Source: a virus (Duplodnaviria > Caudoviricetes). Taken from it: a DNA stretch of 64,000 nt. The position numbers and the translations under genes were made by a program. Shown here piece after piece: positions 22,783 through 43,628 of the stretch. The notes under the pieces are model-generated. The model was not told where the DNA came from. It did not search any database and saw only the letters and a list, made by a program, of their open reading frames with translations. The DNA lies in the IMG/VR virus record IMGVR_UViG_3300034061_004620; one strand, 5' to 3'. The first letter of the stretch is position 1. Each line of letters begins with the position of its first letter.

Positions 22783-23801
22783 GAGCCGACGAGTTTGTAA
22801 CTGAACGTAAAAAGAAAAAACGTAAACGCAGCAACAAATATTTCGGCGGTTACTGGTATCCCGGCTACGGTTATTACGGCAGTGGTGCGTACGGCGGCGA
22901 GTCAGGCGATGGTGGTGGAGATGGTGGCGGTGGAGAAAGTGTCACAGAAGCCAAAACCAGCAAGGTGCTTTTTATAGGCAACGATACTGCTATTGTGGGA
23001 CAAGAACATGGCAAGCGATTACAGTTGTCAGATTCTGACGCTGAAAGAGTACAAGCCATTGCCCAACGTCACGGTGCCTGGTACGAAGGCAATGGTATGG
23101 ATCGCAAACTTACCCAAGGCATCATTGACGATTATGAAGGTAGTTGGGATGACGATTTGTTATCTCCGGCCATCAAAGGATATCCTGCACCATTCTTATA
23201 TGTTCTATTCTCTAATATAAAAGAGAATGATACGGTAGAAGGCAAGATTGGATCGGATCCTGAATCTACAATATTTGATAGAATAATTGACACACAACCC
23301 AGCACAAACTATTTTCCAGATAGAAAGTTTGATGCTGAAACATTACAAAAGTTTTTACAGGCTGTCAGCGAAGGACCGTATGATTTTGTTCAAATGAGTC
23401 AAGCACCTGCTACAGAAAGTAATGTTAGACGATTTTTTACCATGGGTGAACAGCTGATGTGGCCTGATAATTGGGAACAATATCCTAACCGTGCAGGTCG
23501 CGTGGCAAAATCAGTAAATGACTTACGTGACAAGTTTTTAGCTTCCCGAAAACAGGGAGTGTATGTGGCCGGCAGTGACCATCTCCAAGCGGTAAAACAG
23601 TTTTTAGATCAAACAGTAAATGAAAATTTTGCCGATGGCAAGATTAAGAGCAAAAGCCGTCCTGGGCGTGTGAAGAGAGCAGGAGCCAGCTGCAACGGCT
23701 CTGTCACAGACTTACGCCAACGTGCCAAGAATGCCAGCGGCGAAAAAGCCAAGATGTATCACTGGTGTGCAAACATGAAAAGCGGCCGCAGTAAAAAATA
23801 A
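22779..23801 (+). CDS. Multi-segment hypothetical protein, putative head polyprotein
   Basis: MRADEFVTE start; a basic plus Gly/Tyr-rich segment, then SVTE|A and TVNE|N junctions; terminal HWCANMKSG module. Confidence 0.6.
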   Translation: MRADEFVTERKKKKRKRSNKYFGGYWYPGYGYYGSGAYGGESGDGGGDGGGGESVTEAKTSKVLFIGNDTAIVGQEHGKRLQLSDSDAERVQAIAQRHGAWYEGNGMDRKLTQGIIDDYEGSWDDDLLSPAIKGYPAPFLYVLFSNIKENDTVEGKIGSDPESTIFDRIIDTQPSTNYFPDRKFDAETLQKFLQAVSEGPYDFVQMSQAPATESNVRRFFTMGEQLMWPDNWEQYPNRAGRVAKSVNDLRDKFLASRKQGVYVAGSDHLQAVKQFLDQTVNENFADGKIKSKSRPGRVKRAGASCNGSVTDLRQRAKNASGEKAKMYHWCANMKSGRSKK

Positions 23802-23809
23802 ATAAATTT

Positions 23810-24709
23810 ATGCCTAATATAGACCGTGTTCTCAATTTAATAGATCAGTGCGACTTTTCTGCAGATAATCCTTTTGAGCTTCGTGAAAATTTATTTCCTG
23901 TTCTCGGCGAAATAGCTTCTCCCACAATCGTAAAACTATTCGAAAAAACTTGTTATAACGGTTGGCTTGTTTTTGGGTTCGAAGCTGAAAATGCTGTAGT
24001 ACTACGGTACGACAATATTTTATCAAAATTCAATGACGGATCATTAGATGTATATTTTGGACACTTGTCAGAATCTGAACGTAATCAAATAAAATCAAAG
24101 TTCAAAGAAGTTATAGACGATGAAGTAAAACACAGTGAAATGTTTAGTGCCATTATTGGCAAGATGAAAGCTATCAAAGACTATAGACCAGAATTTGTCT
24201 CACCTACTTGTTTGGAATTTATACAATCAGAAAACGATCTTTGGCACACAAATAGTTTTATTGAACTATTACCAAACATTGTAACTGGCGAAAGCTATTT
24301 GTATGCGGCATTTGTTTTGTTTTCTAAGTATAGCAAAAATCCTATCAAACAACAAATTTTTAAAGAATTTATTAGAGATGAGTCAAGACATGTAGCGCAC
24401 TTTATGAATATAATGAAAAAAGCTTATATAGATGATGTTGAACAAAAAAGATACGATAGAAAGTTTTTCCAATTTGCCAAAGATAGGTCACAATTTGAAG
24501 ATGCAAAATTTAAAAATTTTTTAGACACGTTATCTATAAGTGCCGAAATAAAAAAAAATATCGTCAATAAAGCTTATACTACAGAATTTCACCAAACTTT
24601 CAGAAAGTTGTATGCTAAGAAAACCTGGCAATTTTACAACATAGTGTTTCCTGACGTTGATCAAGAAACATATGAAAAGATGTTGTATCCAAATTTAATA
24701 AATAGTTAA
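23810..24709 (+). CDS. Ferritin-like di-iron protein
   Basis: Two ExxH motifs (DEVKH, DESRH) with an upstream GESY; AT-rich relative to neighbours. Confidence 0.65.
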   Translation: MPNIDRVLNLIDQCDFSADNPFELRENLFPVLGEIASPTIVKLFEKTCYNGWLVFGFEAENAVVLRYDNILSKFNDGSLDVYFGHLSESERNQIKSKFKEVIDDEVKHSEMFSAIIGKMKAIKDYRPEFVSPTCLEFIQSENDLWHTNSFIELLPNIVTGESYLYAAFVLFSKYSKNPIKQQIFKEFIRDESRHVAHFMNIMKKAYIDDVEQKRYDRKFFQFAKDRSQFEDAKFKNFLDTLSISAEIKKNIVNKAYTTEFHQTFRKLYAKKTWQFYNIVFPDVDQETYEKMLYPNLINS

Positions 24710-25074
24710 TGCGTTCTCATGAATTCGACAACAAACAAACTGCTGTTAGATATTTTAGCCGACGACCTGAAGTGGTTGGTAAAGTGGATGCAGGCGACTA
24801 CACTTTTTTCTTAGACGAACACCTATTAGACCAAGCCCAAGACCGGCGAGTAGATGATTTTGTGCTTACCAAAGTAATACCAAAAATACCACAAGCCAAA
24901 GCCAAAATACGTCAACTGGGCGCAGGCCAGCATTTTTGGCTTTACGATAATACCAATCAAATTGCACTTGGCGTGCAAATATGGCACACAGATTACAAAA
25001 TTTTTATTATAAGAACCGTATGGAATGGCATGCCCTCAAGCGATGCTAATTATCCAATCTTTAATGTTGCATAA
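24709..25074 (+). CDS. Hypothetical protein
   Basis: MRSHEF start, preceded by an ATAAATA box. Confidence 0.6.
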   Translation: MRSHEFDNKQTAVRYFSRRPEVVGKVDAGDYTFFLDEHLLDQAQDRRVDDFVLTKVIPKIPQAKAKIRQLGAGQHFWLYDNTNQIALGVQIWHTDYKIFIIRTVWNGMPSSDANYPIFNVA

Positions 25075-25137
25075 AAACAACAATTGACTTAAATTCGCCC
25101 GTTTGCTATACTCTTATTACTGTAACTAATTAGGAGT
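25065..25137 (+). promoter_or_regulatory. Early sigma70 promoter with upstream inverted-repeat box
   Basis: TTGACT (25084) -17- TATACT (25107); TGTTGC-N6-ACAACA upstream; AACTAATTAGGAG RBS. Confidence 0.8.
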
Positions 25138-25142
25138 TAGCA

Positions 25143-28100
25143 ATGTCGCAACTTTCAATCCAGGATGTTAATTCAGCAATCATGTTTGGTTCGTTTACAA
25201 ATGAGCAACTGGAAAGCATCACCTGTGCTATCAAGTACCGACGCGGCCAAATTAACCGAGAAACCAAACGTGCCTTGATGCTGGGCGATGTTGTTAAATT
25301 TACACATCCCAAGACTGGGCGCACTCACCGAGGAAATGTTGTTAAAATTAACATAAAAAACATCAAGGTGCGTGAGAATAACACTACCTGGAACGTTCCT
25401 GCTAATATGCTAACTGTTGCTGAATAAGCAACAATGTTGCAAAAAAAGCAACATTTTATTTTGGTAGACCATAAAGACCCATTTTGCTATACTATTGGTA
25501 TAGTAACTAATAAGGAGCGTAATAAATGAGCAAGCTTACCGAATACACTTTTGAAATCTTCAAAGCCGACAAGCGTATCAAAAAAGATGAACGCTATGGT
25601 CGCAACAAGATGGGTCTGCGTTTTGTGGAAGTCAAAGACTTCGCACCACTTACTCGCAGTCATGCAGAAGTATTAGCCGACGGCATCCGTAAAGAAGGCC
25701 TGGTTGTTCATGTGTATGAAACTTTTGTCACCCGCAAGAACATGATGTCGGGCAAAGAGTACCAGGAGCGTTATGACACTCCGTACTACTGCTCGCCCAG
25801 TTCCGAATCTTACTTTAGCATGTAATTGTCAAGGAGACAGCAATGACCAAATTTGAAAAACAAGTTAGACAATTGGCCCAAGTAGTGGGCGACCCTGAGG
25901 GCAAGTTAGAAGAAACTGTAGATTACATTGCCTGTGAAATGCAGGTATCGCTGAGTGACGTGCGTCGAGTATTCAAGGAGAAATAAAATGGAAATTTCTT
26001 GTGCGAATGTTCCTGGTGGTTGGCAGACCGTAGTATATACTGCCGATGGCGGAGAATACTCGTTTGGTCCTGTATACAATCGTGTAACGGACTTATGGAC
26101 CTGGCAGCGGGCTAACTTGTTTGATGTAGCCCAGGGTTATCGTTTAATGAAGGAGGCAGCGTGATGATAGATTCCACTCTAATTGCTGAAAAATTTACTC
26201 GCCACGGTGGTGCATTTGATCGTGGCAGCGCCGATAGCTATTATGGCCGCGGTCCTCGCCCGCATTACTTTGTGGGTGGTACATATCAAAGTGCCGAGAT
26301 TGTGGCTGAAGAAGGTACCCCCGAATATGAAGCTTATATGATGGGATACGAATACAATGAGACGCATGGCGACAAGAAGGATTGGGGTTAATTATGCCTA
26401 AACAATTTTTACGAAATATAATTGACGCTATTCCTACACCCACTCCTGAACAAGGAGATTGTGCAGTCAATTTGATGTTGGCTTTTGTGTCAGGGTTTAT
26501 TTTTGCTATATTGGTATTTGGACATTAATTGTAAAGGAAACTGACATGGATTTTACTCAAGACCAAATCAACGATATTGTACGTGAAGCAAGAGATGCTG
26601 CCTATGCGGCTTCGGATGAATTCTTCCGTGTGAAATTGGGCGGTGTGGATCAGTATGCGTGTGGCTTTGCTTGGACCAATATTTACAAGGTCAAAGGCAA
26701 TAGCAAATTGGGACGTATGCTGAAGGCAGCTGGCATTCGTCAAGACTACAACCGCACATTCCAACTTTGGAATCCAGCCGGTTATCCGGTGCAGAACATT
26801 GACACCTTGGAAACCGGTGCCAGGGCTGCGGCTGATGTGTTTCGTAAATACGGCTTCGATGCATACGCAGGGTCAAGGTTGGATTGATGTCTGAACTGAT
26901 TCAACAGTTAGCAGATCAAGCACGAGCAGAGGTGCCCAAAGGCATCCTTGCTCCGGATCTCTGGATTGAGCAGTATAATCTAATTTTAGGTAGACTAATA
27001 ATAGACGAATGCGTTAAAGTTATGCATGAGCAAGAAAGAATTCCAGCAGGATTCTTGTATGCCAAAAGTGCAGAAACGCACAAGTTAGCGATACAACAAC
27101 ATTTTGGAGTTGATGAATGATTTATGCTTTGATTTTGATTACAGCCGCCGGTGTACCTCAGCCACCTGTTGGGTTCTATCCAAGCAAGACTGAGTGTCAA
27201 GAAACAGCCAAAGAACTTGCTACCAAAGAATACCGGGCAGTCTGTGTTAGGCAGCAGTCGCAAGAAGAAAGTATGGCTCAAGCACAGAACATGATGAAAA
27301 GTTTTATGCAGCTGATTCCGGCTCAAAAATAACAGGAGGCCATATGGGTTATACTGTGTTAGGTGAACGCGATGCACGTTGGCAACCACGCAAGGGTTTG
27401 GAAGGTCCTTTCTTTTATGCCAATGGTCGTGTGCTGTACTATGATCCCAAAGAAGGTCAATACTATGACCCTTTAACAGACTATTATGTGGAGCAGGATG
27501 AGATCAACGAACTCCACGCTCACCTTGCCAGGATGCTGTCACGATAATGACTGCCTTTTATATTTTATTTCTCGCGTTCCATTTCTTTATGAGTGGCATG
27601 CTGACCAGTGCTATACTTACAAATCGTGCGGAACACAAACCTAACCCGTTGCGATTGTATGTGGTTGCTGTATTGTGTTTTTTGTTTGGACTTTACTTTA
27701 CAATAGCATTGATAGGATATAGCTCACTGTGAATAAGCGATATTATAATAATGATAGCACCGTTATCTCTCGTTTGGCTGACCAGGCTCATGAAACAAGT
27801 TGCTTGATTTATGACGAAAGACTTAAAAAAGAACGAGCTGATGCGGTTATCTTTTATGATATTTTCAATCAAAAGTTCGCCGAGTTGATTGTTAAAGAAT
27901 GTTTGGAATGGTGTGATGCTCATGCTACGATTAATGGAACGGCACAGCAGATCCGTGATTCTATAAAGAACCATTTTGGAGTTGAATCATAGACATTTGG
28001 ATTTTAGTTTTAATTACCGCTATTGCACCAAATAAGATATTGTATGATCCTTATTTGGAAACTGTCAGCGAACAGGCGTGTCTCAAGCAAGCAGAATTCG

Positions 28101-28149
28101 TTAGACAAAGACAACCCGAAGCTCGAACTTTTTGTGTAAAGAAACGATA
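25143..28149 (+). other. Run of about 13 short early hypothetical ORFs
   Basis: ORFs at 25143, 25526, 25843, 25988, 26161, 26546, 26884, 27117, 27344, 27547 and 27729, mostly with AGGAG RBS or overlapping stops. Confidence 0.7.
25415..25517 (+). promoter_or_regulatory. Early promoter module with two TGTTGC-N7-GCAACA boxes
   Basis: Boxes at 25415-25433 and 25435-25453; TAGACC (25465) -17- TATACT (25488). Confidence 0.8.
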
Positions 28150-28701
28150 ATGAATATAAAAATAATTGCACTATCTTTTTTACTTGCTGCTTGCTCCTCT
28201 ACCAGCTTGCAAGATACACCGACCAAAGATCCGCCTACGATCGATAACAGAACAAAACAAAACACCAATGGCACCCGTAATACAGATGTAATTGTAAATG
28301 CCAATCCTGAACCTGTTGTTGAAGTTCGTAAAAACAAGATCCCAGATAGGGCGGATCCCAACACCTTATTTCAAGAAAGTTCAATATATTTTGATTTGGA
28401 CGAATACACTGTTAAAGAATCGTTTATACCTTTACTAAAACAACATGCAGAGTTCTTGATAAAAAATCCCAACGAATTTGTATTCATACAAGGACACACT
28501 GACGAACGCGGCGGCACTGAATACAACTTGGCACTGGGACAACGGCGAGCCAATGCAGTCAAAATGGCTTTGTCAAGACTGGGTGTAAGCGATCAACAGA
28601 TGGAAGCATTTTCGTATGGTAGTACCAAACCTCGAGCTGCGGGCAGTACCGAAGAGGCCTGGGCTGAGAATCGTCGTGTGGACTTAGATTACAGGAACTA
28701 A
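28150..28701 (+). CDS. pal: Peptidoglycan-associated lipoprotein (Pal/OmpA C-terminal family)
   Basis: Lipobox LAAC; IYFDLD, IQGHTDERGGTEYNLALGQRRANAVK, AWAENRRVD. Confidence 0.92.
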   Translation: MNIKIIALSFLLAACSSTSLQDTPTKDPPTIDNRTKQNTNGTRNTDVIVNANPEPVVEVRKNKIPDRADPNTLFQESSIYFDLDEYTVKESFIPLLKQHAEFLIKNPNEFVFIQGHTDERGGTEYNLALGQRRANAVKMALSRLGVSDQQMEAFSYGSTKPRAAGSTEEAWAENRRVDLDYRN

Positions 28702-28961
28702 ATTATGACAGACCCTTTCAAAGACATAGCCGATCAAGCGCACTTCAACATCTACCACAGCAACTTGTGGAATGGTACGGGTCGTAGATTTGCTGAAATG
28801 ATTGTGGAACGATGCGCCAGCATGTGTGGCAGTCAGGCCGACCGCAAAAATCTTCGCCAGGCATTTGGTCTGCCTGTGGAGAGTGATGTCAAGTACCCAG
28901 GTCCTGATGCACATTGGAGTATTACGTCGCAGTATGACAGAGACTACAACTTACCCAAGTA

Positions 28962-29363
28962 ATGCTACCAGAAAAATACAAAGAAGATCTCGTAGGTGCC
29001 GGCATTGGTTTTATGCAGACCATTGCCGAAATCTATGGCGCCGATAAAGGAATGGAACTTTGGATCACAATAGCCGACACCATCGATCCCGAGCTTAAAG
29101 GTGCTGTGTTCATGGCCATGTTGACCGGCAACTATCGCAGAGACAAGATACATGTGAAGAATCCGTTTGTGAGCAAGATAGGAGACAAAATTGCTGTAAT
29201 CAAGTGCATTCGTACCTACGATCGAAGACGACTCGGACTCAAAGAAGCCAAAGATATTGCGGATAGATTGGATATGGCTGGTTCTGAAATCCTGGAAGTT
29301 GATCCTAATATTAGACCTACTTTTGCTGTAGAATTACGCAAGTTAGGGCTGGTTGCTAATTAA
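28962..29363 (+). CDS. Protein with a ribosomal protein L7/L12 C-terminal-like domain
   Basis: KIAVIKCIRTY...LGLKEAKDIAD matches the L7/L12 CTD signature; the N-terminus is unrelated to L12. Confidence 0.7.
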   Translation: MLPEKYKEDLVGAGIGFMQTIAEIYGADKGMELWITIADTIDPELKGAVFMAMLTGNYRRDKIHVKNPFVSKIGDKIAVIKCIRTYDRRRLGLKEAKDIADRLDMAGSEILEVDPNIRPTFAVELRKLGLVAN

Positions 29364-29453
29364 GCAACTTATGTTACTTTTTTGCAACATTTTATTTTGG
29401 TAGACCATAATTCGCCATTTTGCTATAATATTGGTATAGTAATTAATTAGGAG
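29351..29453 (+). promoter_or_regulatory. Early promoter module, 38 nt identical to 47772-47809
   Basis: TATTTTGGTAGACCATAATTCGCCATTTTGCTATAATA at 29393-29430; upstream GTTGC/GCAAC boxes. Confidence 0.85.
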
Positions 29454-29458
29454 AATAA

Positions 29459-31358
29459 ATGGAAAAACACACTTGTCCGGAATGCAATGGCACTACCCGT
29501 AAGCCCTATAATCTAAATCCAAGTTGGAAGCGGGTCATTGCTGGTTATGATGAGGCCACAGACACCTTGCCCTGCACCAATTGCGGTGGGCAGTATATGT
29601 TCGGTCGTCCTACGGGTCAAGTCCAGCTGAACAAAGAAGGTCAACCTTGTACGCACGTCTACAAGGGTCGTAACGCAGGCCGCTGTGTAACTGAATACAC
29701 CTGCGAACATTGTAGTGACAGATATCAAATTGACTCAGGAGATTAATATGGGATATTTTAAAGATTTGGAAATTGAAATTCGTGAAATGGATTTCAAAGG
29801 CTACACACCGCAACGGATTGCTGATGCTGTGGGTTTGAGTGTGGCTCAGATTGTTGAGCTGCTCGAAAGCGACTTTGACGAGGATCCACAGGAGTATGCG
29901 GAGCAGGCAGCAGATCTTGATGCTAATTTTTATGGGAATATACAATGACGAAAGAAGATTACGAAAAGGCTATAGCAGAGTTTCTTGCTAATGGTGGCGA
30001 AATCCAACAAATTCCTACAGGCAAAAGCTCCCCAGATGCGGGTGCAAGTGCATGGGGTCGTCCCCAAGCCAAACCCAAAGACATCACTGACATTAACGTG
30101 GACGAATTATGAACCGACTCGAAATACTTGCCAATGAATTAGCTTTGCTGAGCAACCAAAGCATGATGGAACTTGCCCAGATCTTGGTTGCAGATTACCC
30201 AACAAGAGCTGATGTACTTGAAACTCAATTAGGCGCAGCATTTTTTTACAATGACAAGGAGACTGTGAATGAGTAATTTTCTGATTTCAATTGACTACGA
30301 TCCGGTTTCGGGTGGATACATGGCATCTTATTTTAATGGCCAAACCGTCATGTTGGGTGCTACCACATATCAAGACGCTGTACTCGAAGCCGATATGTTG
30401 GAACCTGAAAACTTTGAAGTAGGCTATAACTAATGCAGGCGCAACCGGTTACCGGAGATCTTGGTCCGAAGCAGTTCGAAGCTGTAAACGGACCGATTGA
30501 CTCAAATGAACCAGAAATGCTAACATTTGAATGTAAAGGATGTGGGCAACGGTTTCCGGATACTGGATTGTATTTTTATGGTGTCAGTTCTGTTCGTTGC
30601 ACATGGTGCAGTAAATTTCCAAAGGTAAAAAATGAACGAAAAATCACAACAACTGAATGACGCTGTAGTACAATTGCATGATATTGCTCGCTTGATTGAA
30701 CAGAGCATTGGCTCCGGACAATTAAGCATGGACATTCGATCCGCTGCGGATCGTCTTAACGTGTTAATTAATCCAGTTAAACCGGAGAGTACAAGATGAG
30801 AACCTTTGTTTACGGAACCATTTTTGGTATCGTTGTAGCAACAATTGGCTTCACGGGCATTGCTCGTATGCTGGACAAGGCTGTGGTCAAAACCAAAGAG
30901 ACTGCAACTGAACTGAGTAAATGATTTTGGTTAAATTGCCGACCAAAAACAGGTTGACCTGTAATTCGAATGGCAATATAATAGTGGTATGGTTACAAAC
31001 AGTAATCTAAATTTTCAACTTTACTTGTGGAGAGTAACAAATGACTGACAAAACTTTTATGGTAGGTGGTGTTTCTAAAACTAAAGGCCAATACAAGGTT
31101 CGCTTTGCTGGCGACATGACCCGTGTCAAGATTCTTGCCAAGACTGACACTGACATCAACTTGGTTGAGTTGCCACGTGCAATGACCAAGGGTGAGCTTG
31201 TAACACATCTTAAAACTACGGATCTGTACAAGAATCCTGAGTTTGCTGCTGCAATTGATGCAGCCGATACCAAGTACAATGCTGCTGGCACTGTCAAGGT
31301 TAAAGGTGCCAAGCCAAGTATGGAGGCTATCAAAGCTCGTACCAAACAGCCAGCCTGA
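29459..31358 (+). other. Run of short early hypothetical ORFs, including a Cys-rich zinc-binding ORF (29459..29746) and 31041..31358
   Basis: CxxC pairs; RBS-preceded ORFs; promoter TTGACC (30954) -17- TATAAT (30977). Confidence 0.65.
29945..30112 (+). CDS. Small SutA-like (RNA-polymerase-binding motif) protein
   Basis: Not in the ORF track. MTKEDYEKAIAEFLANGGEIQQIP resembles the SutA 'A.FLA.GG.VQ' helix. Confidence 0.5.
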   Translation: MTKEDYEKAIAEFLANGGEIQQIPTGKSSPDAGASAWGRPQAKPKDITDINVDEL

Positions 31359-31375
31359 GCAATTTAAATGTAACA

Positions 31376-31400
31376 CAGCCCGCTTCGGCGGGCTTTTTTA
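31376..31400 (+). terminator. Intrinsic terminator
   Basis: AGCCCGC-TTCG-GCGGGCT followed by TTTTT. Confidence 0.9.
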
Positions 31401-31561
31401 CTAAATAGGATATGGACGAGATAAACCGTTTATATTTTATTGTTGGCTTCTTGTTGGGCGTTTTACTTATTGGCAGTTTATCAATTGCATTTGGTTTGAT
31501 TTATTATGAATGGATCAAACCAAATAAAGACGACGAATAAATTCCAAATTGTTTTCATACT

Positions 31562-32170
31562 ATGATCAAACTTACAGCTAAAAATTTCAAAGGTGTAGTA
31601 CATCGCGCACGTCGCGAATGGCCTAAATATTCAACTCAGCTGCTGAATGTGGCTGGGCAAAATTGCAAAGCGTTTGATGTAAGGCAGGTAGGATCTGCAA
31701 AAGAAACTTGGTTAGAGATGCGGCAACAAGGCATACCTGGCACCTTTGAAAATTGGTGTAACTTTTATAACTCTAAACCTTTTGCCAACAATATTCCGGC
31801 ACAGGCACAGAGATTGTACGAAATGATTCAAAAGATGCAAATTGGTGGCATTTCGTATGACATGTGTGAAGACTATATTAAAGAAGTAATATACAATAAA
31901 ACACACATGGGCATGGCCGGCGAAGAAATGGCCATTCAAGCAGTGGGTTCGTACTATTCTTTACCGGTTAGATTTTCCGATGCCCAAGAAGAAGCACAAG
32001 GTATTGATGGTTGGATCGGAGAGATTCCGGTACAGGTCAAACCCGAAGGCTCGGCATTCAAAGGACACGTACACAATCATCCAGATAAAGATCGAGTTCT
32101 GCTGGTCACTTACATACCAAAAAAACAAGTATGTTACATTCATAATCCACAATTTGTGGTAAGTAAATAA
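31562..32170 (+). CDS. MjaI-family restriction endonuclease (PD-(D/E)xK fold)
   Basis: WPKYSTQLLNVAGQN...VGS, FENWCNFY, NKTHMGMAGEE, EEAQGIDGWIGEIPVQVKP. No adjacent methyltransferase. Confidence 0.8.
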   Translation: MIKLTAKNFKGVVHRARREWPKYSTQLLNVAGQNCKAFDVRQVGSAKETWLEMRQQGIPGTFENWCNFYNSKPFANNIPAQAQRLYEMIQKMQIGGISYDMCEDYIKEVIYNKTHMGMAGEEMAIQAVGSYYSLPVRFSDAQEEAQGIDGWIGEIPVQVKPEGSAFKGHVHNHPDKDRVLLVTYIPKKQVCYIHNPQFVVSK

Positions 32171-32195
32171 CATAGATTAGAATTGTAGTACAATG

Positions 32196-32545
32196 CCTAA
32201 GAAGAAAGATCGGACAAGACCCGGGGGCGGTACCCGGCCGGTCCACCAAAAAGCATTTTGCCCGATGATATAACGAGCCACCACGGTAAGTATGCGAAAG
32301 CTGATAAGAGTGGAATAGGCAGACGAGGTTAGCGATTCCTCGTTGTATCGGAGAGGGACACCTTGAAAATGCTTTTTGATGGGCCGGAAATAGTATCGAT
32401 TGACGAGCAAGTATTCAAAGGATCTACACGGTAGGCGATCTCCGTAAAAGAAGCAAAACTATAACTGCAAACGCAGCTAACGACGAGGTCTTCGCTCTCG
32501 CAGCGTAATCTCCGGGGCAACTATGCCTTGTTACCCAAAATAGTT
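32196..32545 (+). ncRNA. ssrA: Circularly permuted (two-piece) tmRNA
   Basis: The 3' tRNA-like half CCGGG-GGCGGTA-CCCGG-CCGGTCC-A-CCA ends at 32248. The 5' half GGGCCGG starts at 32381 (G3:U70). Tag frame 32467-32508 reads ANAANDEVFALAA* after ATAACT. Confidence 0.92.
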
Positions 32546-32574
32546 TAGGGCATTTTTATGCCCTAATTTTTTTT
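32545..32574 (+). terminator. Intrinsic terminator after tmRNA
   Basis: TTAGGGCAT-tttt-ATGCCCTAA followed by a T7 tract. Confidence 0.85.
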
Positions 32575-32604
32575 GTATAAATATTGCTATTATAGGAGAG
32601 CAAA

Positions 32605-33354
32605 ATGGCTTTTGAATATCACGCACCTTTTCATGTTATCACTATGGAAACTGGAGATACAAAATTAGTTAACGAAATAGACTGGGGAAGATATCGATTA
32701 GAGAACATGGAACTGATACAATACGATTTGGACCTGAGTGAAGCTACCAATGAATTAGCAGAAGATCTAAGATCTGGTAAGGTAGTTGCAACTGAATTAC
32801 GCGAAACTGTTGCCACTTCACAAGGTCAATTGGTGACTATACAAACTGGATTCAAATTTATGTTTCCGGGAGCAACCGAAAAATATATTTTCCATCCTAA
32901 TTTTTTTAAATATGTTGACAAAATGAAAGCAGATCCTAATACAGTTTACAAAGATCCTATCTGGATAGATTGCACCCCTTGACCAAGAGCAATAATGACA
33001 GAATTTCAAAAAATAAATGACACTGATGTCAGCCATAATCACATTAATATTCACGATTGGGCAATTCGCACTTTGGATCAAGATGAATTAGAACAATTTT
33101 TAGAAGCAGAAAATCGCAATTTGGCATTAATGAAGTCATATGTACAACATGGACTAATGACTCAAGAGACTGTGAAAGAAAATGTTTATCTCCCCGAATA
33201 CGGCGAAGAAATAACCATCGAAGTCGGACTACAAACAATTCTCTCGCCGGGTGTTACAATACTTGACGTTCCAATTGATCCAGAATATGGAGCATGGCAT
33301 GCCAGATACACAGCAGATCCAAATATCAATCATAATCCAACAGCTCAAGTATAA
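32605..33354 (+). other. Two possibly paralogous acidic hypothetical proteins (32605..32982, 32995..33354)
   Basis: Similar size, and both end with a ADPN..P motif. Confidence 0.55.
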
Positions 33355-33363
33355 CGGATCTTA

Positions 33364-33392
33364 TTGACCAAAATTCAGCTCTTTGCTATAAT
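33364..33392 (+). promoter_or_regulatory. Early sigma70 promoter
   Basis: TTGACC -17- TATAAT with the same TTTGC extended -10. Confidence 0.8.
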
Positions 33393-33398
33393 AAGAGT

Positions 33399-33806
33399 AT
33401 GAATACACAATTCTCAATTCCTGATCCAGGTTGTCAAATTGCAATTACTTTTGAATTTCCAAGTTATGTAATCGGCGCGGCCGCAGTTAACAAAACAACA
33501 ATAACAGGCATCGTTGAAAAAGCTACCAAGTTCACCCCTCCCGATTTTGTTAGAATCGTAACTGATTTTGACAGTCCTGTACGCATTAGAGAAATTCCTT
33601 TGCATCGCGTTACTAACATTGAGTATGCTGACGGTCGTAGTGCTAATCGCAAAGCAATCGAGCAAGATACAAAAACTTGGAACGTATTTGGTAGTAAAGG
33701 ATCTCGATACACAGTAATTCAAACCAAATCAACTTGGACTTGCACTTGTCCGGGTTTTCAATTTCGTAAATCATGCCGGCATATAAAGGAGTTACAAGAT
33801 GCGTAG
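33399..33806 (+). CDS. SWIM zinc-finger protein
   Basis: GSRYTV...WTCTCPGFQFRKSCRHI (CxC..CxH). Confidence 0.8.
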   Translation: MNTQFSIPDPGCQIAITFEFPSYVIGAAAVNKTTITGIVEKATKFTPPDFVRIVTDFDSPVRIREIPLHRVTNIEYADGRSANRKAIEQDTKTWNVFGSKGSRYTVIQTKSTWTCTCPGFQFRKSCRHIKELQDA

Positions 33807-35115
33807 ACCATGGGAAATAATACAAGAATTAGAAGCAGACAACAGTCGTTTGGTCAAAGAATCCATAGTTGCAGGTATTGCAGCACAAGGTAATGACGAA
33901 TTCTTCGAAGGCTGTAGACTGGCTTTGGATCCATTGATTACATTTGGCCTAAAACAGGTGCCAGAAAAGAAGGACATGTCGGGAGATGGCTTAGGTCGTG
34001 AACTGTTTCTCGAACTGTGTACACAACTAAGTAGTAGGATAGTAACTGGCAACAATGCCAGAGATTTGGTGCAACGAGCTATGGCTATGGCCACACCCAA
34101 TGAATGGAATTCATGGTGCCGTCGTATTCTTATTAAAGACCTACGTTGTGGTGTAAGTGAAAAAACAATTAACAAAGTAGTGGAGAAAAAATATGCAGAT
34201 TACATTATACCTACTTTCAGTTGCCAGCTTGCTCACGATAGTGCTAATCATGAAGGAAAGTTGGCAGGACAAAAACTTGTTGAAGTCAAGTTGGATGGTG
34301 TGCGTGTTATTACTATTGTGTGGCCAGACGGTCGTGTTCTTCAATTTAGCCGGAATGGCAAAGAGCTTGTAAACTTTGAACATGTGAAAGAGCAACTGGC
34401 CGCGGTAGCACCAGGATTTAATGAGCCTATGGTGCTGGATGGTGAGATTATGTCGAGCAGTTTTCAAGACTTGATGAAGCAAGTGCATCGTAAAGACAAT
34501 GTGGCAGCAGGTGATGCTGTACTTAACTTGTTTGACTATATTACATTAGCTGAGTTTAATGCAGGTGGTACAGGATCAGCCCGGCAAGAACATCGTAGTG
34601 CCATGTTGCAAGAATGGTATGCTACTGTACAAGATGCACTACCCAATGTCACAGTGTTGAGCCATGAAGCAATTGACATGGATACCGATGCAGGACAAAA
34701 ACGATTTCGCGAAATCAATCAGCAGGCCATTACAGGCGGTTATGAAGGCATCATGATCAAAGATCCTGATGCTGCCTACGAATGTAAACGTAGTGTATCT
34801 TGGCTCAAGCTCAAACCGTTTATCGAAGTCAGCCTCAATGTAGTTGATTTTGAAGAAGGCACCGGTCGCAATACAGGCAGGCTGGGTGCTATTATATGTG
34901 AAGGTGAGGACGATGGTCGTAGAATACGTGTTAATGTGGGTTCTGGTTTTAGTGATGCCAATCGCGTTGACTATTGGGTGGATAGGTCGACGATTGTCGG
35001 TCACGTGGCAGAAGTACGTGCCGACGCTGTTACTCAAAATCAAGACGGCACTTACTCGTTACGGTTTCCACGTTTCTTACGGTTTAGAGGATTTACAGCG
35101 GGCGAAAAAATCTAA
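33799..35115 (+). CDS. ATP-dependent DNA ligase
   Basis: EVKLDGVR (KxDG), VLDGEI, GYEGIMIK, WLKLK, and an OB-fold VNVGSGFSD...SLRFPRF. Confidence 0.95.
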   Translation: MRRPWEIIQELEADNSRLVKESIVAGIAAQGNDEFFEGCRLALDPLITFGLKQVPEKKDMSGDGLGRELFLELCTQLSSRIVTGNNARDLVQRAMAMATPNEWNSWCRRILIKDLRCGVSEKTINKVVEKKYADYIIPTFSCQLAHDSANHEGKLAGQKLVEVKLDGVRVITIVWPDGRVLQFSRNGKELVNFEHVKEQLAAVAPGFNEPMVLDGEIMSSSFQDLMKQVHRKDNVAAGDAVLNLFDYITLAEFNAGGTGSARQEHRSAMLQEWYATVQDALPNVTVLSHEAIDMDTDAGQKRFREINQQAITGGYEGIMIKDPDAAYECKRSVSWLKLKPFIEVSLNVVDFEEGTGRNTGRLGAIICEGEDDGRRIRVNVGSGFSDANRVDYWVDRSTIVGHVAEVRADAVTQNQDGTYSLRFPRFLRFRGFTAGEKI

Positions 35116-35125
35116 AGGATTTGTT

Positions 35126-35861
35126 ATGGAAAAGCAGGCAATCAAAGAATTGATGTACGGTGGGGTCAAAGAGATAATGAGTAACAGTCGTTACTATTAT
35201 CGCAGCAGCACGGGCCGACAATTTAGCTCGTTCACCGAACCTGGTAAAATAGCAGTGCAAGAGTTTGTGCATGAAATAGCTGCATATATAACTGATGCAG
35301 AAAATGCCGAACTGGATCAACGTGCCAAAGACATGGTGCTCAAAGAACTGAAAGGAAACCAAAATGGCTAATTGGAAAGTATCAACTTACTATAAAAAAT
35401 CATGCGAAGAACACGAACATTACATCAAAGATGGACAAACTATTGTTCGTAAAACAGGGTATCGTGGTTGTTCATTCTTTGTAGAAACCACGAACGACAA
35501 TCCGCCAGAGTTCGAATTTGATTATGTTCCTGGTGGCGATGGCACCAAAGATAGTATTGACATGTATAACTGCTGCTATAACAACATAGAAAATGTTGAG
35601 CTTGATACTATGTGGGACGGTTGTTGGGAAGATATTGACTTTCCAGAAGATATGTCGGAAGAAGAACAAGAACGCCTTATGGAAGTAATTGAAGAGCATG
35701 GTGTTTACCAAGCACTCGAGGATGAAGAGGGCTGGAGTCAAAACGAAACTGAAGCATGGATCTGGGGTCCAATCTTGATTGAGGATGGCGCAGGTAATCA
35801 AGCGAGAATTATCTGTGCTGACGAAGCAGGTAACGTAATAGATTTCAAAGAGGAGGAGTAA
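35126..35861 (+). other. Two hypothetical ORFs (35126..35371, 35364..35861)
   Basis: Overlapping ORFs with RBS; the second is very acidic. Confidence 0.65.
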
Positions 35862-35963
35862 AAATGGGATATGATTCGAGAGCAGTTCGAGTGAAAAAAG
35901 CAGAAAAAGCTTTAGCACTATTATGCTACAACAAAGAGCGCGAGCGACATCTTATTAGAGAAT

Positions 35964-36356
35964 TTGCCGCAGCAGAAGCAAAAAATACACGGGCCCGCCC
36001 TGCACGTAATCGCGGTGATAAAGATGCCGAATAAACATGACGTAGTGGTTGTGAATGACAAGTTCACAACATGGCCAGACAAAGAAGAACTACTTAAAGT
36101 TTTACGCAAAGGAATTTGTGAAGTAACATTTAACAAAGTCAACGGCGAGCGTCGTGTGATGCCTTGTACACTACGTGAAGACTTACTACCTGCCTCAACA
36201 AAAGAAACTACTTCCGTACCTAAAGATAAACCCAATGACATTATCAGTGTTTGGTGCACAGATGCTAATGCCTGGCGTAGTTTTAAATTGAGAAATTTTA
36301 TTTCTATCGAACCTTTATATGAACACAAAATTGAAAACTTGGACAGTGATACTTGA
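35964..36356 (+). CDS. WYL-like/SH3 beta-barrel phage protein
   Basis: VTFNKVNGERRVMPCTL...VWCTDANAWRSFKL. Confidence 0.7.
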   Translation: MPQQKQKIHGPALHVIAVIKMPNKHDVVVVNDKFTTWPDKEELLKVLRKGICEVTFNKVNGERRVMPCTLREDLLPASTKETTSVPKDKPNDIISVWCTDANAWRSFKLRNFISIEPLYEHKIENLDSDT

Positions 36357-36534
36357 AGAAGATCCCGAAACCGGAGAACTTGTTTTGCCATTTAATGATG
36401 AGATGTTGCAAGAATTGGGATGGAAAGAGGGTGATACTCTGGAATGGTTAGATAACAAAGACGGTTCTTGGAGTTTGGTAAAAAAGAAAACAAAAAAGAA
36501 CAAAAAAGTAGTTGCAAAATCCAAAACAATCTAA
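36319..36534 (+). CDS. AbrB/MazE-like DNA-binding protein
   Basis: GELVLPFNDEMLQELGWKEGDTLEW. Confidence 0.65.
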   Translation: MNTKLKTWTVILEEDPETGELVLPFNDEMLQELGWKEGDTLEWLDNKDGSWSLVKKKTKKNKKVVAKSKTI

Positions 36535-36584
36535 TATAATACTTGAATGCTGTCGTACAGCATATCTTTTTTAGGAGATATTTA

Positions 36585-36854
36585 ATGTTTGACCTTAATA
36601 CAAAACAAGGTAAGTTGTTCCGTGCTCTCGTCCTTGACGGTGAGTCGCTAACTGCAAGTCAGATCTCGAAGCGTTTTAGCATCAAGAATCCACGGGCTAC
36701 CATTAGCGAAATTCGTTACGCAGGTTTTCCTGTTTATGCGAATACACGCAAAGCAGGCAACGGCGTTCGTGTTACTGAATACCGTCACGGTAAAGCAAGT
36801 CGCAAAATTGTTGCAGCAGGTTACAAAGCCATTGCAATGGGTATTGTTGACTAA
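36585..36854 (+). CDS. Winged helix-turn-helix protein
   Basis: SLTASQISKRFSIKNPRATISEIRYAGFPVY; followed by a terminator at ~36872-36899. Confidence 0.7.
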   Translation: MFDLNTKQGKLFRALVLDGESLTASQISKRFSIKNPRATISEIRYAGFPVYANTRKAGNGVRVTEYRHGKASRKIVAAGYKAIAMGIVD

Positions 36855-36925
36855 TTGTAGTTTACCAAAATAAAGCTCGCCTATTAGGCGAGCTTTTTTG
36901 TTTCCGAGTTATTTCTAAAAATATT

Positions 36926-37972
36926 ATGAATTTAAGAACTCTTCAAGAAAAATCAGACATATTATATGGTAGACCAATTGCATACTATCTCAAAAAAGCA
37001 AGTGGCAATTATAAGTTTGATATTGATATAGTTAGCAATCAAGACATATTTGGTTCATACTATGTGAAAGCATTAGGATTAGAAACTGTTATAGATATTC
37101 TAAGATCAAGAAATTCAAAATGTATATTGTATGTTGCATGCGATCATGTTTCGGATAACATGCATAGAATAATCGATTACATTCAAGATAATTTACCTGA
37201 TGCCACTATTCTTAGTATTACCGGGGACGGCAGTTACTATGAACTTGCTAATAATACATTGTATTATCCTTATTATTGGTATGCGTTCCTTTCAGGCCCG
37301 CAAAAACATTATGCGGCATGGAAATTAGATACATCAAAATTTGCACAATCAAGGCTATATTCAGCAAGCTGTCTTAATAATCTTTGTAGATATCACAGAA
37401 TTAAACTGTTAGATCAGTTTGTACAAAAACCTTATTTTCAAAATATTCTTTATTCATTTAACGGCACCGCTGCCGATGACCATTACGATTTACCAGAAAT
37501 GCAAACATTGGTTGCAAAGTATCAAAACTTGCTACCATTAAAAATAGATAGAAAAGATGCCAAGTATGGTGATGATATGTTAAGATTAGATCATCCTGGA
37601 TTACATGATTCGTACTTGAATATTGTAACTGCACATCATTATGATATTAGTTTTCTTGATGAAAAAATTTTTAAACCTATTGCCACAGGTCAGATTTTTG
37701 TTACTTTGTCTGGAACTGGTACAATAGATTTATTAAGGAAACTGGGATTTGACGTATTTGATGATATCATAAATCATGATTACGACAATGAACCGGATTT
37801 GAATATGAGAATAGATAAATTAGTTACAAGTATAGATCTCTGGATGCACATGGATCATGAAACTGTTTGGCAGGAAACATATTCAAGAAGAGTAAAGAAC
37901 GCCGAACATTTTTTTAATCTTGATGTTTCTAAAAATCCATTTGATCAGTTTTTAAAACAGTTTGACCAATAA
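36926..37972 (+). CDS. Glycosyltransferase-like protein
   Basis: SCLNNLCRYHR, SYLNIVT, FLDEKIFKPIATGQ, LRKLGFDVFDDIINHDYD; paralog of 11267. Confidence 0.55.
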   Translation: MNLRTLQEKSDILYGRPIAYYLKKASGNYKFDIDIVSNQDIFGSYYVKALGLETVIDILRSRNSKCILYVACDHVSDNMHRIIDYIQDNLPDATILSITGDGSYYELANNTLYYPYYWYAFLSGPQKHYAAWKLDTSKFAQSRLYSASCLNNLCRYHRIKLLDQFVQKPYFQNILYSFNGTAADDHYDLPEMQTLVAKYQNLLPLKIDRKDAKYGDDMLRLDHPGLHDSYLNIVTAHHYDISFLDEKIFKPIATGQIFVTLSGTGTIDLLRKLGFDVFDDIINHDYDNEPDLNMRIDKLVTSIDLWMHMDHETVWQETYSRRVKNAEHFFNLDVSKNPFDQFLKQFDQ

Positions 37973-38111
37973 CTTTGACAGTATTTAATAGACAATTCCT
38001 ATTCTTTCAATTAAAAAATATTCGGCTAAAATCTATTAAAATTACGTTGACAATAGGTATTTACTGGATATATAATATAATGCAATGCAGCATTTTTATA
38101 AGGAGAAATCA

Positions 38112-38645
38112 ATGAAAACAGTAGGAGACAAAATTGAATCGTTCACCGTAACTGGTGTAAACCCAGGAAGTGATCAATTCTTTGCAATTACAGAACAAGC
38201 ATTTGCAGGTAAGTGGAAAGTAATCGTTTACTATCCAAAAGATTTTACATTTGTATGCCCGACAGAAATTGTAGCTTATGATAAACTACACGGTGATTTT
38301 GCTGATCGTGATGCTGTTCTACTCACAGGTAGTACAGACAACGAGTTCTGTAAACTGGCATGGCAGGCAGCGCACGAAGACCTTAAGAAAATTAAACATG
38401 TTCAGTTTGCTGATACCGCACGTGACGAACGTAGCCTAATCAATCAACTGGGAGTATTCTACGCACCCGCAGGTGCTGCACTTCGCGCAACATTCATTGT
38501 TGATCCAGACAACGTTATCCAGCATGTTACTGTCAACAACTTGAATGTTGGTCGTAGCCCAGAAGAAACACTTCGTGTATTAGATGCGTTACAGACTGGC
38601 GAGCTTTGCGCTTGCAACCGCACAGTCGGTGGCGAAACACTTTAA
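38112..38645 (+). CDS. ahpC: Peroxiredoxin AhpC
   Basis: YPKDFTFVCPTE peroxidatic Cys, RATFIVDPD, GELCACN resolving Cys. Confidence 0.95.
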   Translation: MKTVGDKIESFTVTGVNPGSDQFFAITEQAFAGKWKVIVYYPKDFTFVCPTEIVAYDKLHGDFADRDAVLLTGSTDNEFCKLAWQAAHEDLKKIKHVQFADTARDERSLINQLGVFYAPAGAALRATFIVDPDNVIQHVTVNNLNVGRSPEETLRVLDALQTGELCACNRTVGGETL

Positions 38646-38658
38646 TAGGAGATAGCAA

Positions 38659-39063
38659 ATGCTTGAATGTTTAATTGTAGGAGATAGTATTGCTGTTGGC
38701 GTTAGTCAAGTTCGTCCTGAGTGTCAAGCCATTGCGAAAAGCGGTATTAACTCCAGCGACTGGAACAAAAAGCATTTGCACAAGCTGAAGCCAACCCGGA
38801 CACTGATTATCAGTTTGGGTGCAAATGACCTCGGTATCAACACCGAAGGACAGGTAAGATCATTACGCACCAATGCCCAAGCTGATAGAGTGTTTTGGTT
38901 GTTACCCAGTCAATATCTAAAACCAAAACAAGTTGAAGCAGTTCGGCAAGTGGCATCAGAATTTGGTGATACCGTGATTCCAAGACCCGAAACTAACATA
39001 AGTAGAGATGGCGTGCATCCTACCTACAAGGGTTATAAAATATTAGCGGATCAAACAAGATGA
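38659..39063 (+). CDS. SGNH/GDSL hydrolase
   Basis: GDSIA, SLGAND, DGVHP. Confidence 0.85.
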   Translation: MLECLIVGDSIAVGVSQVRPECQAIAKSGINSSDWNKKHLHKLKPTRTLIISLGANDLGINTEGQVRSLRTNAQADRVFWLLPSQYLKPKQVEAVRQVASEFGDTVIPRPETNISRDGVHPTYKGYKILADQTR

Positions 39064-39192
39064 GTAAAGGATCAAATCCTCGACCGTATAGTGTTGATCA
39101 AAAGACTTTTGATTCAAATTGGGACGCTATCTTTAAGAAGAAAGAAGAACAGGTGATAGATAACAAAGAGCAAAAAGAAAAGGAAAAGGAAA

Positions 39193-39705
39193 ATGAGTTG
39201 GGTTGAACAAATTAAAGAAGGATTGCCAGAATATGCTAAGGACACAAAACTTAATCTTGATAATGTTATCAATAGGTCTACACTTGATTTTACTGAAGCT
39301 AATTGCATCGCTTTAGCAGCCGCTATGGCTACTGGTAATGGCAAGTTGGTATCATTTATTCAAAACAATATTCAAGATACTAAAGAACGTGATGCAGCAC
39401 TGACAGCAGCAAGCTTGATGGGCATGAATAATGTTTGGTATCCGTATATAGAAATGGCAGATGATCCTAACTTAAAGGGATTGCCAGCACAACTACGTAT
39501 GAATGCCATAAGTACTCATGGTGGTACAACCAAAGAACGATTTGAAGCATACAGCCTTGCAGCAAGTATTGTTGGTAAATGTCATTTTTGTGTCAAATCA
39601 CATTATGACAATTTGAAGAAAATGGGTTATACTGTGGAACAATTGAGAGACATTGGTCGAATTGCTGCTGTAATAACGTCGGTGGCCAAGGTACTTAATA
39701 GTTAA
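39193..39705 (+). CDS. ahpD: Alkyl hydroperoxide reductase AhpD
   Basis: YAKDTKLNL, MGMNNVWY, SIVGKCHFCVKSH (CxxC). Confidence 0.93.
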   Translation: MSWVEQIKEGLPEYAKDTKLNLDNVINRSTLDFTEANCIALAAAMATGNGKLVSFIQNNIQDTKERDAALTAASLMGMNNVWYPYIEMADDPNLKGLPAQLRMNAISTHGGTTKERFEAYSLAASIVGKCHFCVKSHYDNLKKMGYTVEQLRDIGRIAAVITSVAKVLNS

Positions 39706-39807
39706 TTCAATACCCAAAAGGGTCTTTTTACGTCAAGAAAAGATCATGGCTCAAAATAAATTAGGACAAATGAAATTAGATACATAAATTAAGTTCAAGG
39801 ACACAAA

Positions 39808-40011
39808 ATGACAGAAACAAAAACTCGAAGCGTAGTGAAAACTATTATATGGCGAATAATATGTATTTTGGTATTAGCCTATTGGACCGGACTTGGAGGA
39901 TCATTATTGATTAATGCACTCTTTATGACTTTGTATTATATACACGAAAGAATTTGGTTAAGAATCAATTGGGGAAAAGATTTCGCGCAGGAAAAAGAAA
40001 ACGTAGCCTAA
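39808..40011 (+). CDS. DUF2061-like small membrane protein
   Basis: ETKTRSVVKTIIWR...LYYIHERIWLRINWG. Confidence 0.7.
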   Translation: MTETKTRSVVKTIIWRIICILVLAYWTGLGGSLLINALFMTLYYIHERIWLRINWGKDFAQEKENVA

Positions 40012-40124
40012 GCAAAATCATTAGACAAAAAACATGATTGTACGTATATAAATGTACTGCACAACTGTGTAAAATAATGATACATACTAATGCAGTATGT
40101 TAATTTTAATCAAGGAGAAATAAC

Positions 40125-40199
40125 ATGGCATGGACCACACCAGCAGCACAAGATATGCGTTTTGGTTTTGAAATCACAATGTATATCGCAAATCGATAA
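40125..40199 (+). CDS. pqqA: PQQ precursor peptide PqqA
   Basis: Not in the ORF track. MAWTTPAAQDMRFGFEITMYIANR with the ExxxY motif; strong RBS AAGGAG; own terminator. Confidence 0.93.
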   Translation: MAWTTPAAQDMRFGFEITMYIANR

Positions 40200-40205
40200 A
40201 CAAAA

Positions 40206-40234
40206 CAAGCCCTTTAACAAAAGGGCTTTTTTAT
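40206..40234 (+). terminator. Intrinsic terminator after pqqA
   Basis: AAGCCCTTT-aac-AAAGGGCTT followed by TTTT. Confidence 0.85.
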
Positions 40235-40353
40235 TGAATTTTGAACATAGACATAAATAAATATAGTTGACAATCAACTAAATCACTTGTAAAATCATAC
40301 AAACCTTACAAGGTTTTCTAAAAAATTTTTCACATTATCACATAGGAGAAACC

Positions 40354-41601: not shown

Positions 41602-41656
41602 TACAAAGGGGGCAACCCCTTTGTTCAACATCCTACACACCACTTGAATATATAAA

Positions 41657-42151
41657 ATGAAAAAATTACTTGCCACTATTTTTTTACTGGTAGCATTACC
41701 TTTGCAGGCTCACAACCCATACAACAATTGGGATGCATTTAGAAACAAATATCTACAAATTGCCACAAACAAAGTTGACATCGAAGGAGATGTTCTTGGT
41801 GAACAGATCGCACTTGCATTGCGACAAAATTTACCGGCAAGTAGAGCATTAGTAACAAGAGCACCTGATCTTGATAGAGTAGCATCACTATTGTACACAA
41901 ACCAAATCAAAGTAGCCTTGTTGTCAAGCACAGATATGCAGCAACTGGTAGCACTGGAATTGTATAAAGATCTTCCTATAACAATTTTGTTGCATAATGA
42001 AAAATATTTCTTGATTGCACGTTCAGACATGCCCGAACCACATGTGCATGTGATCTGTAAAACATTGTTAGAAGACAAAACATTTGGTTTTAAATTGCCA
42101 ACAAAAACTAAATTTAACACCAAGGCACATCCTGGAATATCAACTCTTTAA
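41657..42151 (+). CDS. Secreted TAXI/periplasmic-binding-like protein
   Basis: Signal peptide; LPASRALVTRAPDLDRVASLL, LIARSDMPEPHV, AHPG. Confidence 0.5.
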   Translation: MKKLLATIFLLVALPLQAHNPYNNWDAFRNKYLQIATNKVDIEGDVLGEQIALALRQNLPASRALVTRAPDLDRVASLLYTNQIKVALLSSTDMQQLVALELYKDLPITILLHNEKYFLIARSDMPEPHVHVICKTLLEDKTFGFKLPTKTKFNTKAHPGISTL

Positions 42152-42162
42152 TAGAGTGCGCC

Positions 42163-43377: not shown

Positions 43378-43403
43378 ATTTAATCATTTTATTCAAGCAA
43401 TGA

Positions 43404-43432
43404 TTGACAACAATGATAAATAAATATACAAT
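43404..43432 (+). promoter_or_regulatory. Consensus sigma70 promoter driving the leader/tRNA operon
   Basis: TTGACA (43404) -17 nt- TACAAT (43427). Confidence 0.85.
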
Positions 43433-43439
43433 AGAGACT

Positions 43440-43559
43440 ATGATGAACTCAACACTATTACATAAATCGTTTAAATCACAACCCGAATCAGGCCTAATAG
43501 CCTATTGGGTGATTACACGCGATATTAGTAATCGTGCCCTGGGGAAATATAGAACCTAA
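43440..43559 (+). CDS. Putative attenuator leader peptide (39 aa)
   Basis: MMNSTLLHKSFKSQPESGLIAYWVITRDISNRALGKYRT*; its 3' end overlaps the antiterminator arm. Confidence 0.65.
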   Translation: MMNSTLLHKSFKSQPESGLIAYWVITRDISNRALGKYRT

Positions 43560-43616: not shown

Positions 43617-43628
43617 ATAAAGGAAGAA

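Follow-up and report, generated by a model that had tools for sequence, protein, structure and literature searches.

The closest described systems are the type IIP restriction–modification (R-M) pairs MjaI/M.MjaI (MJ0984/MJ0985) and MthZI, which are cellular, have CTAG as their target and join the nuclease to a methylase partner. Experiments have established that MjaI is active and CTAG-specific (PMC2615612); M.MjaI methylates the same word to give m4C (PMC11033074). A different arrangement is represented by PacI of Pseudomonas alcaligenes, cited in PMC3488263 as a solitary restriction enzyme in a host whose genome has no sites for it. Avoidance of restriction sites by phages has also been surveyed, the GATC-free Staphylococcus phage K being one example (PMC6286503), and lone restriction-enzyme genes have been noticed in phages, where 12 were counted in 831 genomes and left unexplained (PMC4176335).

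We describe here a lone nuclease gene of the MjaI family located on a 64,000-base stretch of phage DNA (hereafter, the window) that contains no CTAG. As in the MjaI and MthZI systems, the protein belongs to PF09568, is of similar size and has the same conserved core, and the genomic footprint points to the same target; unlike in those systems, the carrier is a jumbo phage of lytic type, no methylase partner was found in the 102 kb read, and the absence of sites would give the protection. With PacI, as cited there, the locus shares an endonuclease kept without a methylase in a carrier genome that lacks the recognition sites. The PacI site is an 8-bp, AT-only sequence, which a GC-rich genome will by chance hardly contain; here, in contrast, the carrier is a virus rather than a bacterium, and a 4-bp site with an expectation of about 900 copies per genome appears to have been removed by selection, in several lineages. 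The locus also resembles known cases of phage site avoidance in that a short palindrome has been eliminated largely by synonymous changes, but classical avoidance is defensive against host enzymes, whereas this phage has a cognate-type nuclease of its own, and its avoidance of the site goes with that gene, not with the clade. It is textbook knowledge that nucleases of phages can leave the modified DNA of the phage intact: T4 endonucleases II and IV act alongside hydroxymethylcytosine DNA, and chlorovirus R-M systems degrade host DNA. In our proposal, too, a virus nuclease would destroy host or foreign DNA from which the viral genome is exempt; the exemption in T4 and chloroviruses is given by base modification or methylation, whereas here it would be given by sequence content alone. 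Site avoidance and the solitary PacI being already known, the novelty lies in the combination of a phage-borne lone nuclease with a purge of its presumed site; a limited literature search found neither a paper on a lone CTAG or other type II nuclease in a phage together with total removal of a 4-bp site, nor a description of the CTAG absence in cyanophage S-SM2 reported below.

The window is part of a large jumbo phage of freshwater lake water, whose genome measures about 350 kb. Contigs that encode exactly this nuclease protein reach 352 kb, the window DNA is also present on a 346-kb NCBI metagenome contig, and the stretch has been found in lake-water metagenomes from at least 16 studies. Its genes, nearly all on the + strand, include those for an ATP-dependent DNA ligase and an amidoligase. 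We joined four overlapping loci from this phage to the window and obtained 102,044 contiguous bases, about 30% of the genome; the records used for comparison are mostly metagenomic fragments. The window also carries 28 tRNA genes with 20 amino-acid specificities in a block at 44049–52086 (+), where small ORFs are interspersed. Host-like genes are found between 736 and 63114, namely those for formamidase, AhpC peroxiredoxin, Fe/Mn superoxide dismutase, a CMD-family protein, UvdE, UDP-glucose dehydrogenase, a radical-SAM/SPASM protein and an OmpA-domain protein, a load that is unusual, and the extensions beyond the window (L195, L196, L217 and L218) encode ribosomal protein S21, ClpS, HSP20, an eIF-1a-like protein, PhoH and MazG.

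The preliminary description of this DNA, made from the letters alone, had assigned the nuclease ORF to the MjaI family, and an HMM search against Pfam RE_MjaI bears this out with an E-value of 2.4e-23 and 83.2 bits (cut-off 22.7) over model positions 1–156 of 164, nearly the whole model; the M. jannaschii genome, used as a control, matches the same model. We collected 85 full-length homologues of about 200 aa with 28–83% identity. In an alignment of 27 homologues, extending down to 27% identity, there is no variation at K113, E143, D149 or K160, and E144 and Q158 are each conserved in at least 90%. In an AlphaFold2 model with a mean pLDDT of 88.9, E143 and E144 belong to a helix, D149 opens a strand and Q158-V-K160 is part of the following strand; this helix–strand–strand layout corresponds to the usual PD-(D/E)XK core, and from it we infer the putative catalytic residues. 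The coordinates of all features are collected in Table 1.

Table 1. Features of the nuclease locus and of the window; positions are those of the 64,000-base window
Feature	Position	Strand	Basis or remark
Terminator-like hairpin closing the upstream gene and forming the left boundary of the nuclease/tmRNA unit	31377..31394	+	Hairpin
Solitary MjaI-family (PD-(D/E)XK) restriction-type endonuclease gene	31562..32170	+	PF09568, phrog_14722, 202 aa
Predicted catalytic core: E143-E144, D149, Q158-V-K160	31988..32041	+	Conservation and AlphaFold2 model
Permuted (two-piece, alpha-type) tmRNA gene	32184..32508	+	Rfam RF04321 116.9 bits, RF01849 89.3 bits
Terminator-like hairpin beyond the tmRNA, forming the right boundary of the unit	32545..32566	+	Hairpin
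CTAG-free DNA, proposed immunity feature	1..64000	.	Continues over no fewer than 102,044 contiguous bases of the phage

Structural comparison with known nucleases gave weak signals. Residues 119–202 align weakly to PD-(D/E)XK nucleases in VIA-align, I-Ssp6803I being the best (Z 6.0, 81 residues) and Hjc, HhaI, Vsr and PaqCI the other weak matches; a Foldseek search against the PDB gave no match to the model at E <= 0.001, and a sequence search of solved structures found nothing useful. The homodimer prediction score is 0.41, against a mark of 0.42. We considered a homing endonuclease of the I-Ssp6803I type and rejected it: the gene is free-standing, flanked by two terminators within an intergenic module that is variable, its footprint is a 4-bp word, and the weak match to I-Ssp6803I reflects the shared nuclease core. 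Among the lone copies of the gene, dN/dS is 0.05–0.09, and the nuclease is therefore under strong purifying selection. No Shine-Dalgarno sequence is visible before its ATG, and in one metatranscriptome (run X20) the low-depth contigs cover the neighbouring ORFs 31054–31305 and 33092–33323, with none over the nuclease gene. Taken as read from its sequence, the ORF encodes an intact, selectively maintained type II restriction endonuclease of the MjaI family, most probably with specificity for CTAG, the specificity being assigned on the basis of family membership and the genomic footprint.

The tmRNA gene lies directly downstream of the nuclease gene in the same variable module and has no part in the mechanism proposed below. 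It was missed by ARAGORN; its tag reading frame ends in ...ALAA followed by a stop, and the gene may hint at an alphaproteobacterial host. Related tmRNA variants from lake metagenomes (loose ends in run X8) end the tag with ...GCTCTAGCAGCC..., which contains CTAG, and the same place in the phage (window 32489–32510) reads ...GCTCTCGCAGCG...; the variants have CTAG where the phage tmRNA is without it, and the purge therefore extends into an RNA gene. In two lake metagenomes, contigs connect position 32544, which immediately precedes the downstream terminator, to 31377/31378 in the upstream terminator with 2 bases between. Both bounds of the nuclease/tmRNA unit are thus brought together, and these joins could be variants with another order of the module or repeat-mediated assembly joins.

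An exact count gave no CTAG in the window, where base composition would give 229 and Markov models of first and second order 139 and 125, respectively, and none in the stitched 102,044 bases, where about 202 are expected. The preliminary description had reported zero CTAG against roughly 200 predicted from composition and had called other 4-bp palindromes common, and both statements stand after exact k-mer counting with Markov correction: GATC occurs 283 times, GGCC 159, CCGG 153, AGCT 190, GTAC 194, TCGA 143 and CATG 258. The two component trinucleotides are frequent (CTA 711 times, TAG 805 times), and CTA is followed by A in 221 cases, by C in 217, by T in 273 and by G in none. CTAG is the sole purged 4-mer in the window; no other has an observed/expected ratio (O/E) below 0.60, and the next most depleted, TAAG at 0.60, is equally low in relatives with normal CTAG. 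An artefact of assembly or pipeline was rejected, CTAG being present in contigs from the same kinds of sample and in loose ends of the same runs, and so was CTAG depletion of the VSP-repair type, which yields partial depletion, not zero, and is not shown by the relatives of the clade. In an alignment of the ligase gene, relatives carry CTAG at 47 positions, at none of which the window has it; at 14 of the 47 the window keeps the same amino-acid pair by other codons, with swaps such as CTAGAA to TTAGAA, TCTAGC to TCGAGC and GCTAGA to GCCAGA. As judged from this synonymous replacement, selection against CTAG works at the DNA level.

The same absence is found in other phages with a lone nuclease gene. 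At 15 IMG/VR loci whose records encode a homologue of 41–63% identity and no PF01555 methyltransferase anywhere, CTAG is absent against about 510 expected in total, and single lone-nuclease records, whole or partial, have none against 325 expected in 160 kb, 304 in 115 kb, 196 in 73 kb and 96 in 40 kb; in these relatives CTAG is again the sole absent word. One contig with a lone nuclease (L010), the only one of these contigs in which the word was seen, has four CTAG, all in its last 1.1 kb (14994–16100); this tail starts past the point of divergence from a 99.3%-identical twin (L011), and because it lies beyond the end of the match to the twin it is probably an assembly chimera, or else a recent recombinant patch. 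An independent case is a cultured cyanomyovirus, S-SM2, whose complete genome of 190,789 bp encodes the homologue SSM2_066 and has no CTAG against 291 expected.

The next question is whether a methyltransferase accompanies the gene. The preliminary description had seen none adjoining it, and indeed the neighbours are the upstream terminator with a 42-aa ORF on one side and the tmRNA gene on the other. When 34 ORFs of the window, the 30 largest among them, were scanned with Pfam, no DNA methyltransferase was detected, and an HMM of PF01555 type, built from methylases of that type found in the course of the analysis, had zero matches in six frames of the 102 kb, about 30% of the genome; the sole methyltransferase called among the genes of the extensions is of FkbM type (PF05050). 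The relatives gave the same answer: the lone-nuclease records, up to 160 kb, contain no PF01555-type methyltransferase, PF02086 and PF00145 are absent from four of them as well as from S-SM2, and the complete S-SM2 genome has no match to PF01555, PF02086 or PF00145. The gene after the S-SM2 nuclease gene, SSM2_067 (379 aa), has no Pfam match and is therefore not recognisable as a methyltransferase. A cognate methyltransferase near the nuclease, which marks an orthodox type II R-M system, was thus not found in the 102 kb read, and the carrier is without recognition sites, as in the PacI type, both in the 102,044 bases and in S-SM2.

One could suppose that a non-canonical modification, or a distant methyltransferase that escapes recognition, protects the DNA and that the lack of sites is incidental. 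The part of the genome read is about 30%, so that a distant methyltransferase or a few CTAG sites could lie in the other 70% or so, and the phage does encode radical-SAM, amidoligase, sugar-nucleotide and FkbM-type methyltransferase genes whose roles are unassigned. But chemical protection would leave no selection to clear about 900 sites by synonymous changes, a CTAG-specific modification has no target in CTAG-free DNA, and the complete genome of S-SM2 is without all three main DNA methyltransferase families; we regard this explanation as very improbable indeed.

Relatives that lack the gene give the control for these observations. Using the window DNA ligase as a query, we obtained 80 related jumbo-phage loci (64–76% identity, 989 kb), in which no nuclease is found within 10 kb of the ligase and 3110 CTAG are present against 2972 expected (O/E 1.05). 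PF09568 is absent from the five largest of these records (183–356 kb), among which G032, 356 kb long and 96% complete, has 907 CTAG against 892 expected (O/E 1.02). A tree of the ligase places L050 as the sister of the window with support of 100/99. This sister is syntenic on both flanks of the nuclease locus; instead of the nuclease, the tmRNA and ORF 32605–32982 it has an unrelated 4.4-kb segment, in which a ResIII/DEAD helicase is encoded, and it has 26 CTAG in 8.4 kb, some of them within the shared ligase gene. Equal depletion in relatives without the nuclease, which the preliminary description had named as evidence against its own reading, is thus not seen.

A third group of genomes has the nuclease together with a methylase. 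The closest R-M relatives retain CTAG, with 76 against 120 expected in G002 (O/E 0.64) and 7 against 18 in L030, and further carriers of both genes also retain it (12 against 43 expected in L045; 79 against 424 in cyanophage S-CAM3, O/E 0.19). More distant viral or proviral loci with both genes, several of them proviruses, are strongly CTAG-poor (O/E 0–0.11); the methylase therefore permits CTAG and does not guarantee it. The arrangement of the two genes varies: in S-CAM3, S-H9-2 and S-RIM32 the methylase gene is downstream and shares 4 bp with the end of the nuclease gene; distant (pro)viral contigs (L032–L042, L044, L045) have the PF01555 gene convergent to the nuclease gene; and in a bacterial MAG a nuclease homologue directly follows a PF01555 (m4C-type) methylase. 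Because the copies of the MAG, of cyanophages and of (pro)viruses are paired with a methylase, the R-M cassette is the ordinary state of the RE_MjaI family. Three IMG/VR contigs (L035, L036, L040) have two tandem MjaI-family genes with a single convergent PF01555 methylase as their common partner, and in L037, L038 and L041 the second MjaI-family copy is split into two frames. The absence of CTAG tracks with the gene in the way that had been suggested as a check: a lone gene goes with zero CTAG, absence of the gene with CTAG at expectation, and close relatives with nuclease plus methylase keep CTAG.

These comparisons also bear on the possibility that the protein has diverged from MjaI and is inactive, a nickase, a DNA-binding factor or an enzyme for a longer or other site, in which case the absence of CTAG would not come from a risk of self-cleavage. 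The identity to cellular and cyanophage members of the family is only about 27–30%, neither a solved structure nor a close match in structure is available, and the N-terminal helical domain of the homologues is uncharacterised. Such divergence nevertheless seems to us very unlikely, for the acidic and lysine residues of the core are invariant, CTAG alone is purged in every lone-gene genome, over a GC range of 0.38–0.44 and in two unrelated phage groups, and CTAG is tolerated where a cognate-type methyltransferase adjoins the gene.

Cyanomyoviruses supply both an independent comparison and a reason for caution. Five of them without PF09568 (S-SM1, S-ShM2, Syn9, S-PM2 and S-SSM7) have CTAG at O/E 0.87–0.98 in samples of 80–110 kb. 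Other words are missing from these phages: CCGG is found 0 times in the 80–110 kb of each of the five, once in S-CAM3 and 74 times in S-SM2, and S-SM1 is without GTAC, of which 324 would be expected, as S-ShM2 is without TTAA (274 expected). A search of the five for RE_HpaII gave no match and one for the MspI family a sub-threshold match only; the S-SM1 product annotated as a DNA endonuclease (SSM1_053), a candidate for an own nuclease of that phage, was rejected when Pfam identified it as a 2OG-Fe(II) oxygenase. With CCGG, GTAC and TTAA purged and no nuclease of the HpaII or MspI family found, a purge can arise without an own nuclease, and these other purges presumably stem from host restriction.

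On a rival reading, the CTAG purge is purely anti-restriction, directed against a CTAG R-M system of the host, with the nuclease as a passenger such as the remnant of a captured cassette. The total purges of CCGG, GTAC and TTAA speak for such an explanation, and there is good documentation that phages avoid sites in response to R-M systems of their hosts (PMC6286503). Yet every examined record with a lone homologue is CTAG-free, against normal CTAG in the 80 ligase-defined relatives, in L050 and in the five cyanomyoviruses without the gene; the gene is still of full length, with invariant core residues and dN/dS of 0.05–0.09; and the lone state arose at least three times, on each occasion with zero CTAG. 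In the tree of the nuclease, S-SM2 is sister to cyanophages with nuclease plus methylase, two such jumbo-phage copies are nested among lone ones, and the well-supported branches require at least three switches between the two states. Basing on these observations, we consider the passenger explanation unlikely.

The lone gene and zero CTAG are tightly linked across lineages, and we regard as quite probable the proposal that a lone CTAG nuclease in a CTAG-free genome distinguishes self from non-self by sequence content and cuts foreign CTAG-bearing DNA; restriction by site avoidance without a methylase, as the preliminary description had put it, is supported by the CTAG absence, the HMM match, the lack of a methyltransferase and the tracking with the gene. 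That the protein cleaves CTAG, that its targets are the DNA of the host or of rival phages, and the order of events are what we infer. In the proposed mechanism the nuclease would be active on CTAG, and its gene without a methylase would be tolerable only in a genome without CTAG, such as that of this phage; because CTAG is absent from every stretch examined, the enzyme would have no substrate in its own genome. Self and non-self would be told apart by sequence content instead of DNA modification. During infection, any CTAG-bearing DNA in the cell would be cut, that of the host chromosome as well as that of co-infecting relatives with their about 900 CTAG per 350 kb. This would lead to host shut-off, to nucleotide salvage or to the exclusion of rival phages.

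Two orders of events can be envisaged. An R-M cassette may have come first, followed by loss of the sites and then of the methylase; or a purge driven by the host may have come first, followed by capture of a lone nuclease by an already clean genome. The former is the likeliest order, in view of the intermediate O/E values of 0.64 and 0.19 and of the nested copies with nuclease plus methylase, and the stages on such a path would be G002 (0.64), S-CAM3 (0.19) and then S-SM2 and the window phage (0). By either route, the immunity would rest on the absence of sites. As a tentative generalization, which we hold to be possible but rather doubtful, a lone type II nuclease with total removal of its 4-bp site would be a recurrent offensive strategy of large lytic phages, evolved by way of R-M cassettes and used mainly against closely related co-infecting phages and the host chromosome; the CCGG, GTAC and TTAA purges might reflect the same principle with nucleases as yet unrecognised.

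The idea is directly testable, because S-SM2, a carrier of the gene that grows on Synechococcus WH8017, is cultured alongside CTAG-rich relatives, and CTAG-free phage backbones with a CTAG nuclease could serve as tools. The purge indicates that selection can clear roughly 900 copies of a 4-bp word from a 350-kb genome. If the proposal is true, the specificity of an uncharacterised nuclease could be read from the genome of its carrier, and some of the lone restriction genes in phage genomes would be explained. Viruses would then possess, besides methylation and base hypermodification, a third means of distinguishing self from non-self, in which self is DNA without the word, and restriction enzymes would act as weapons between phages.
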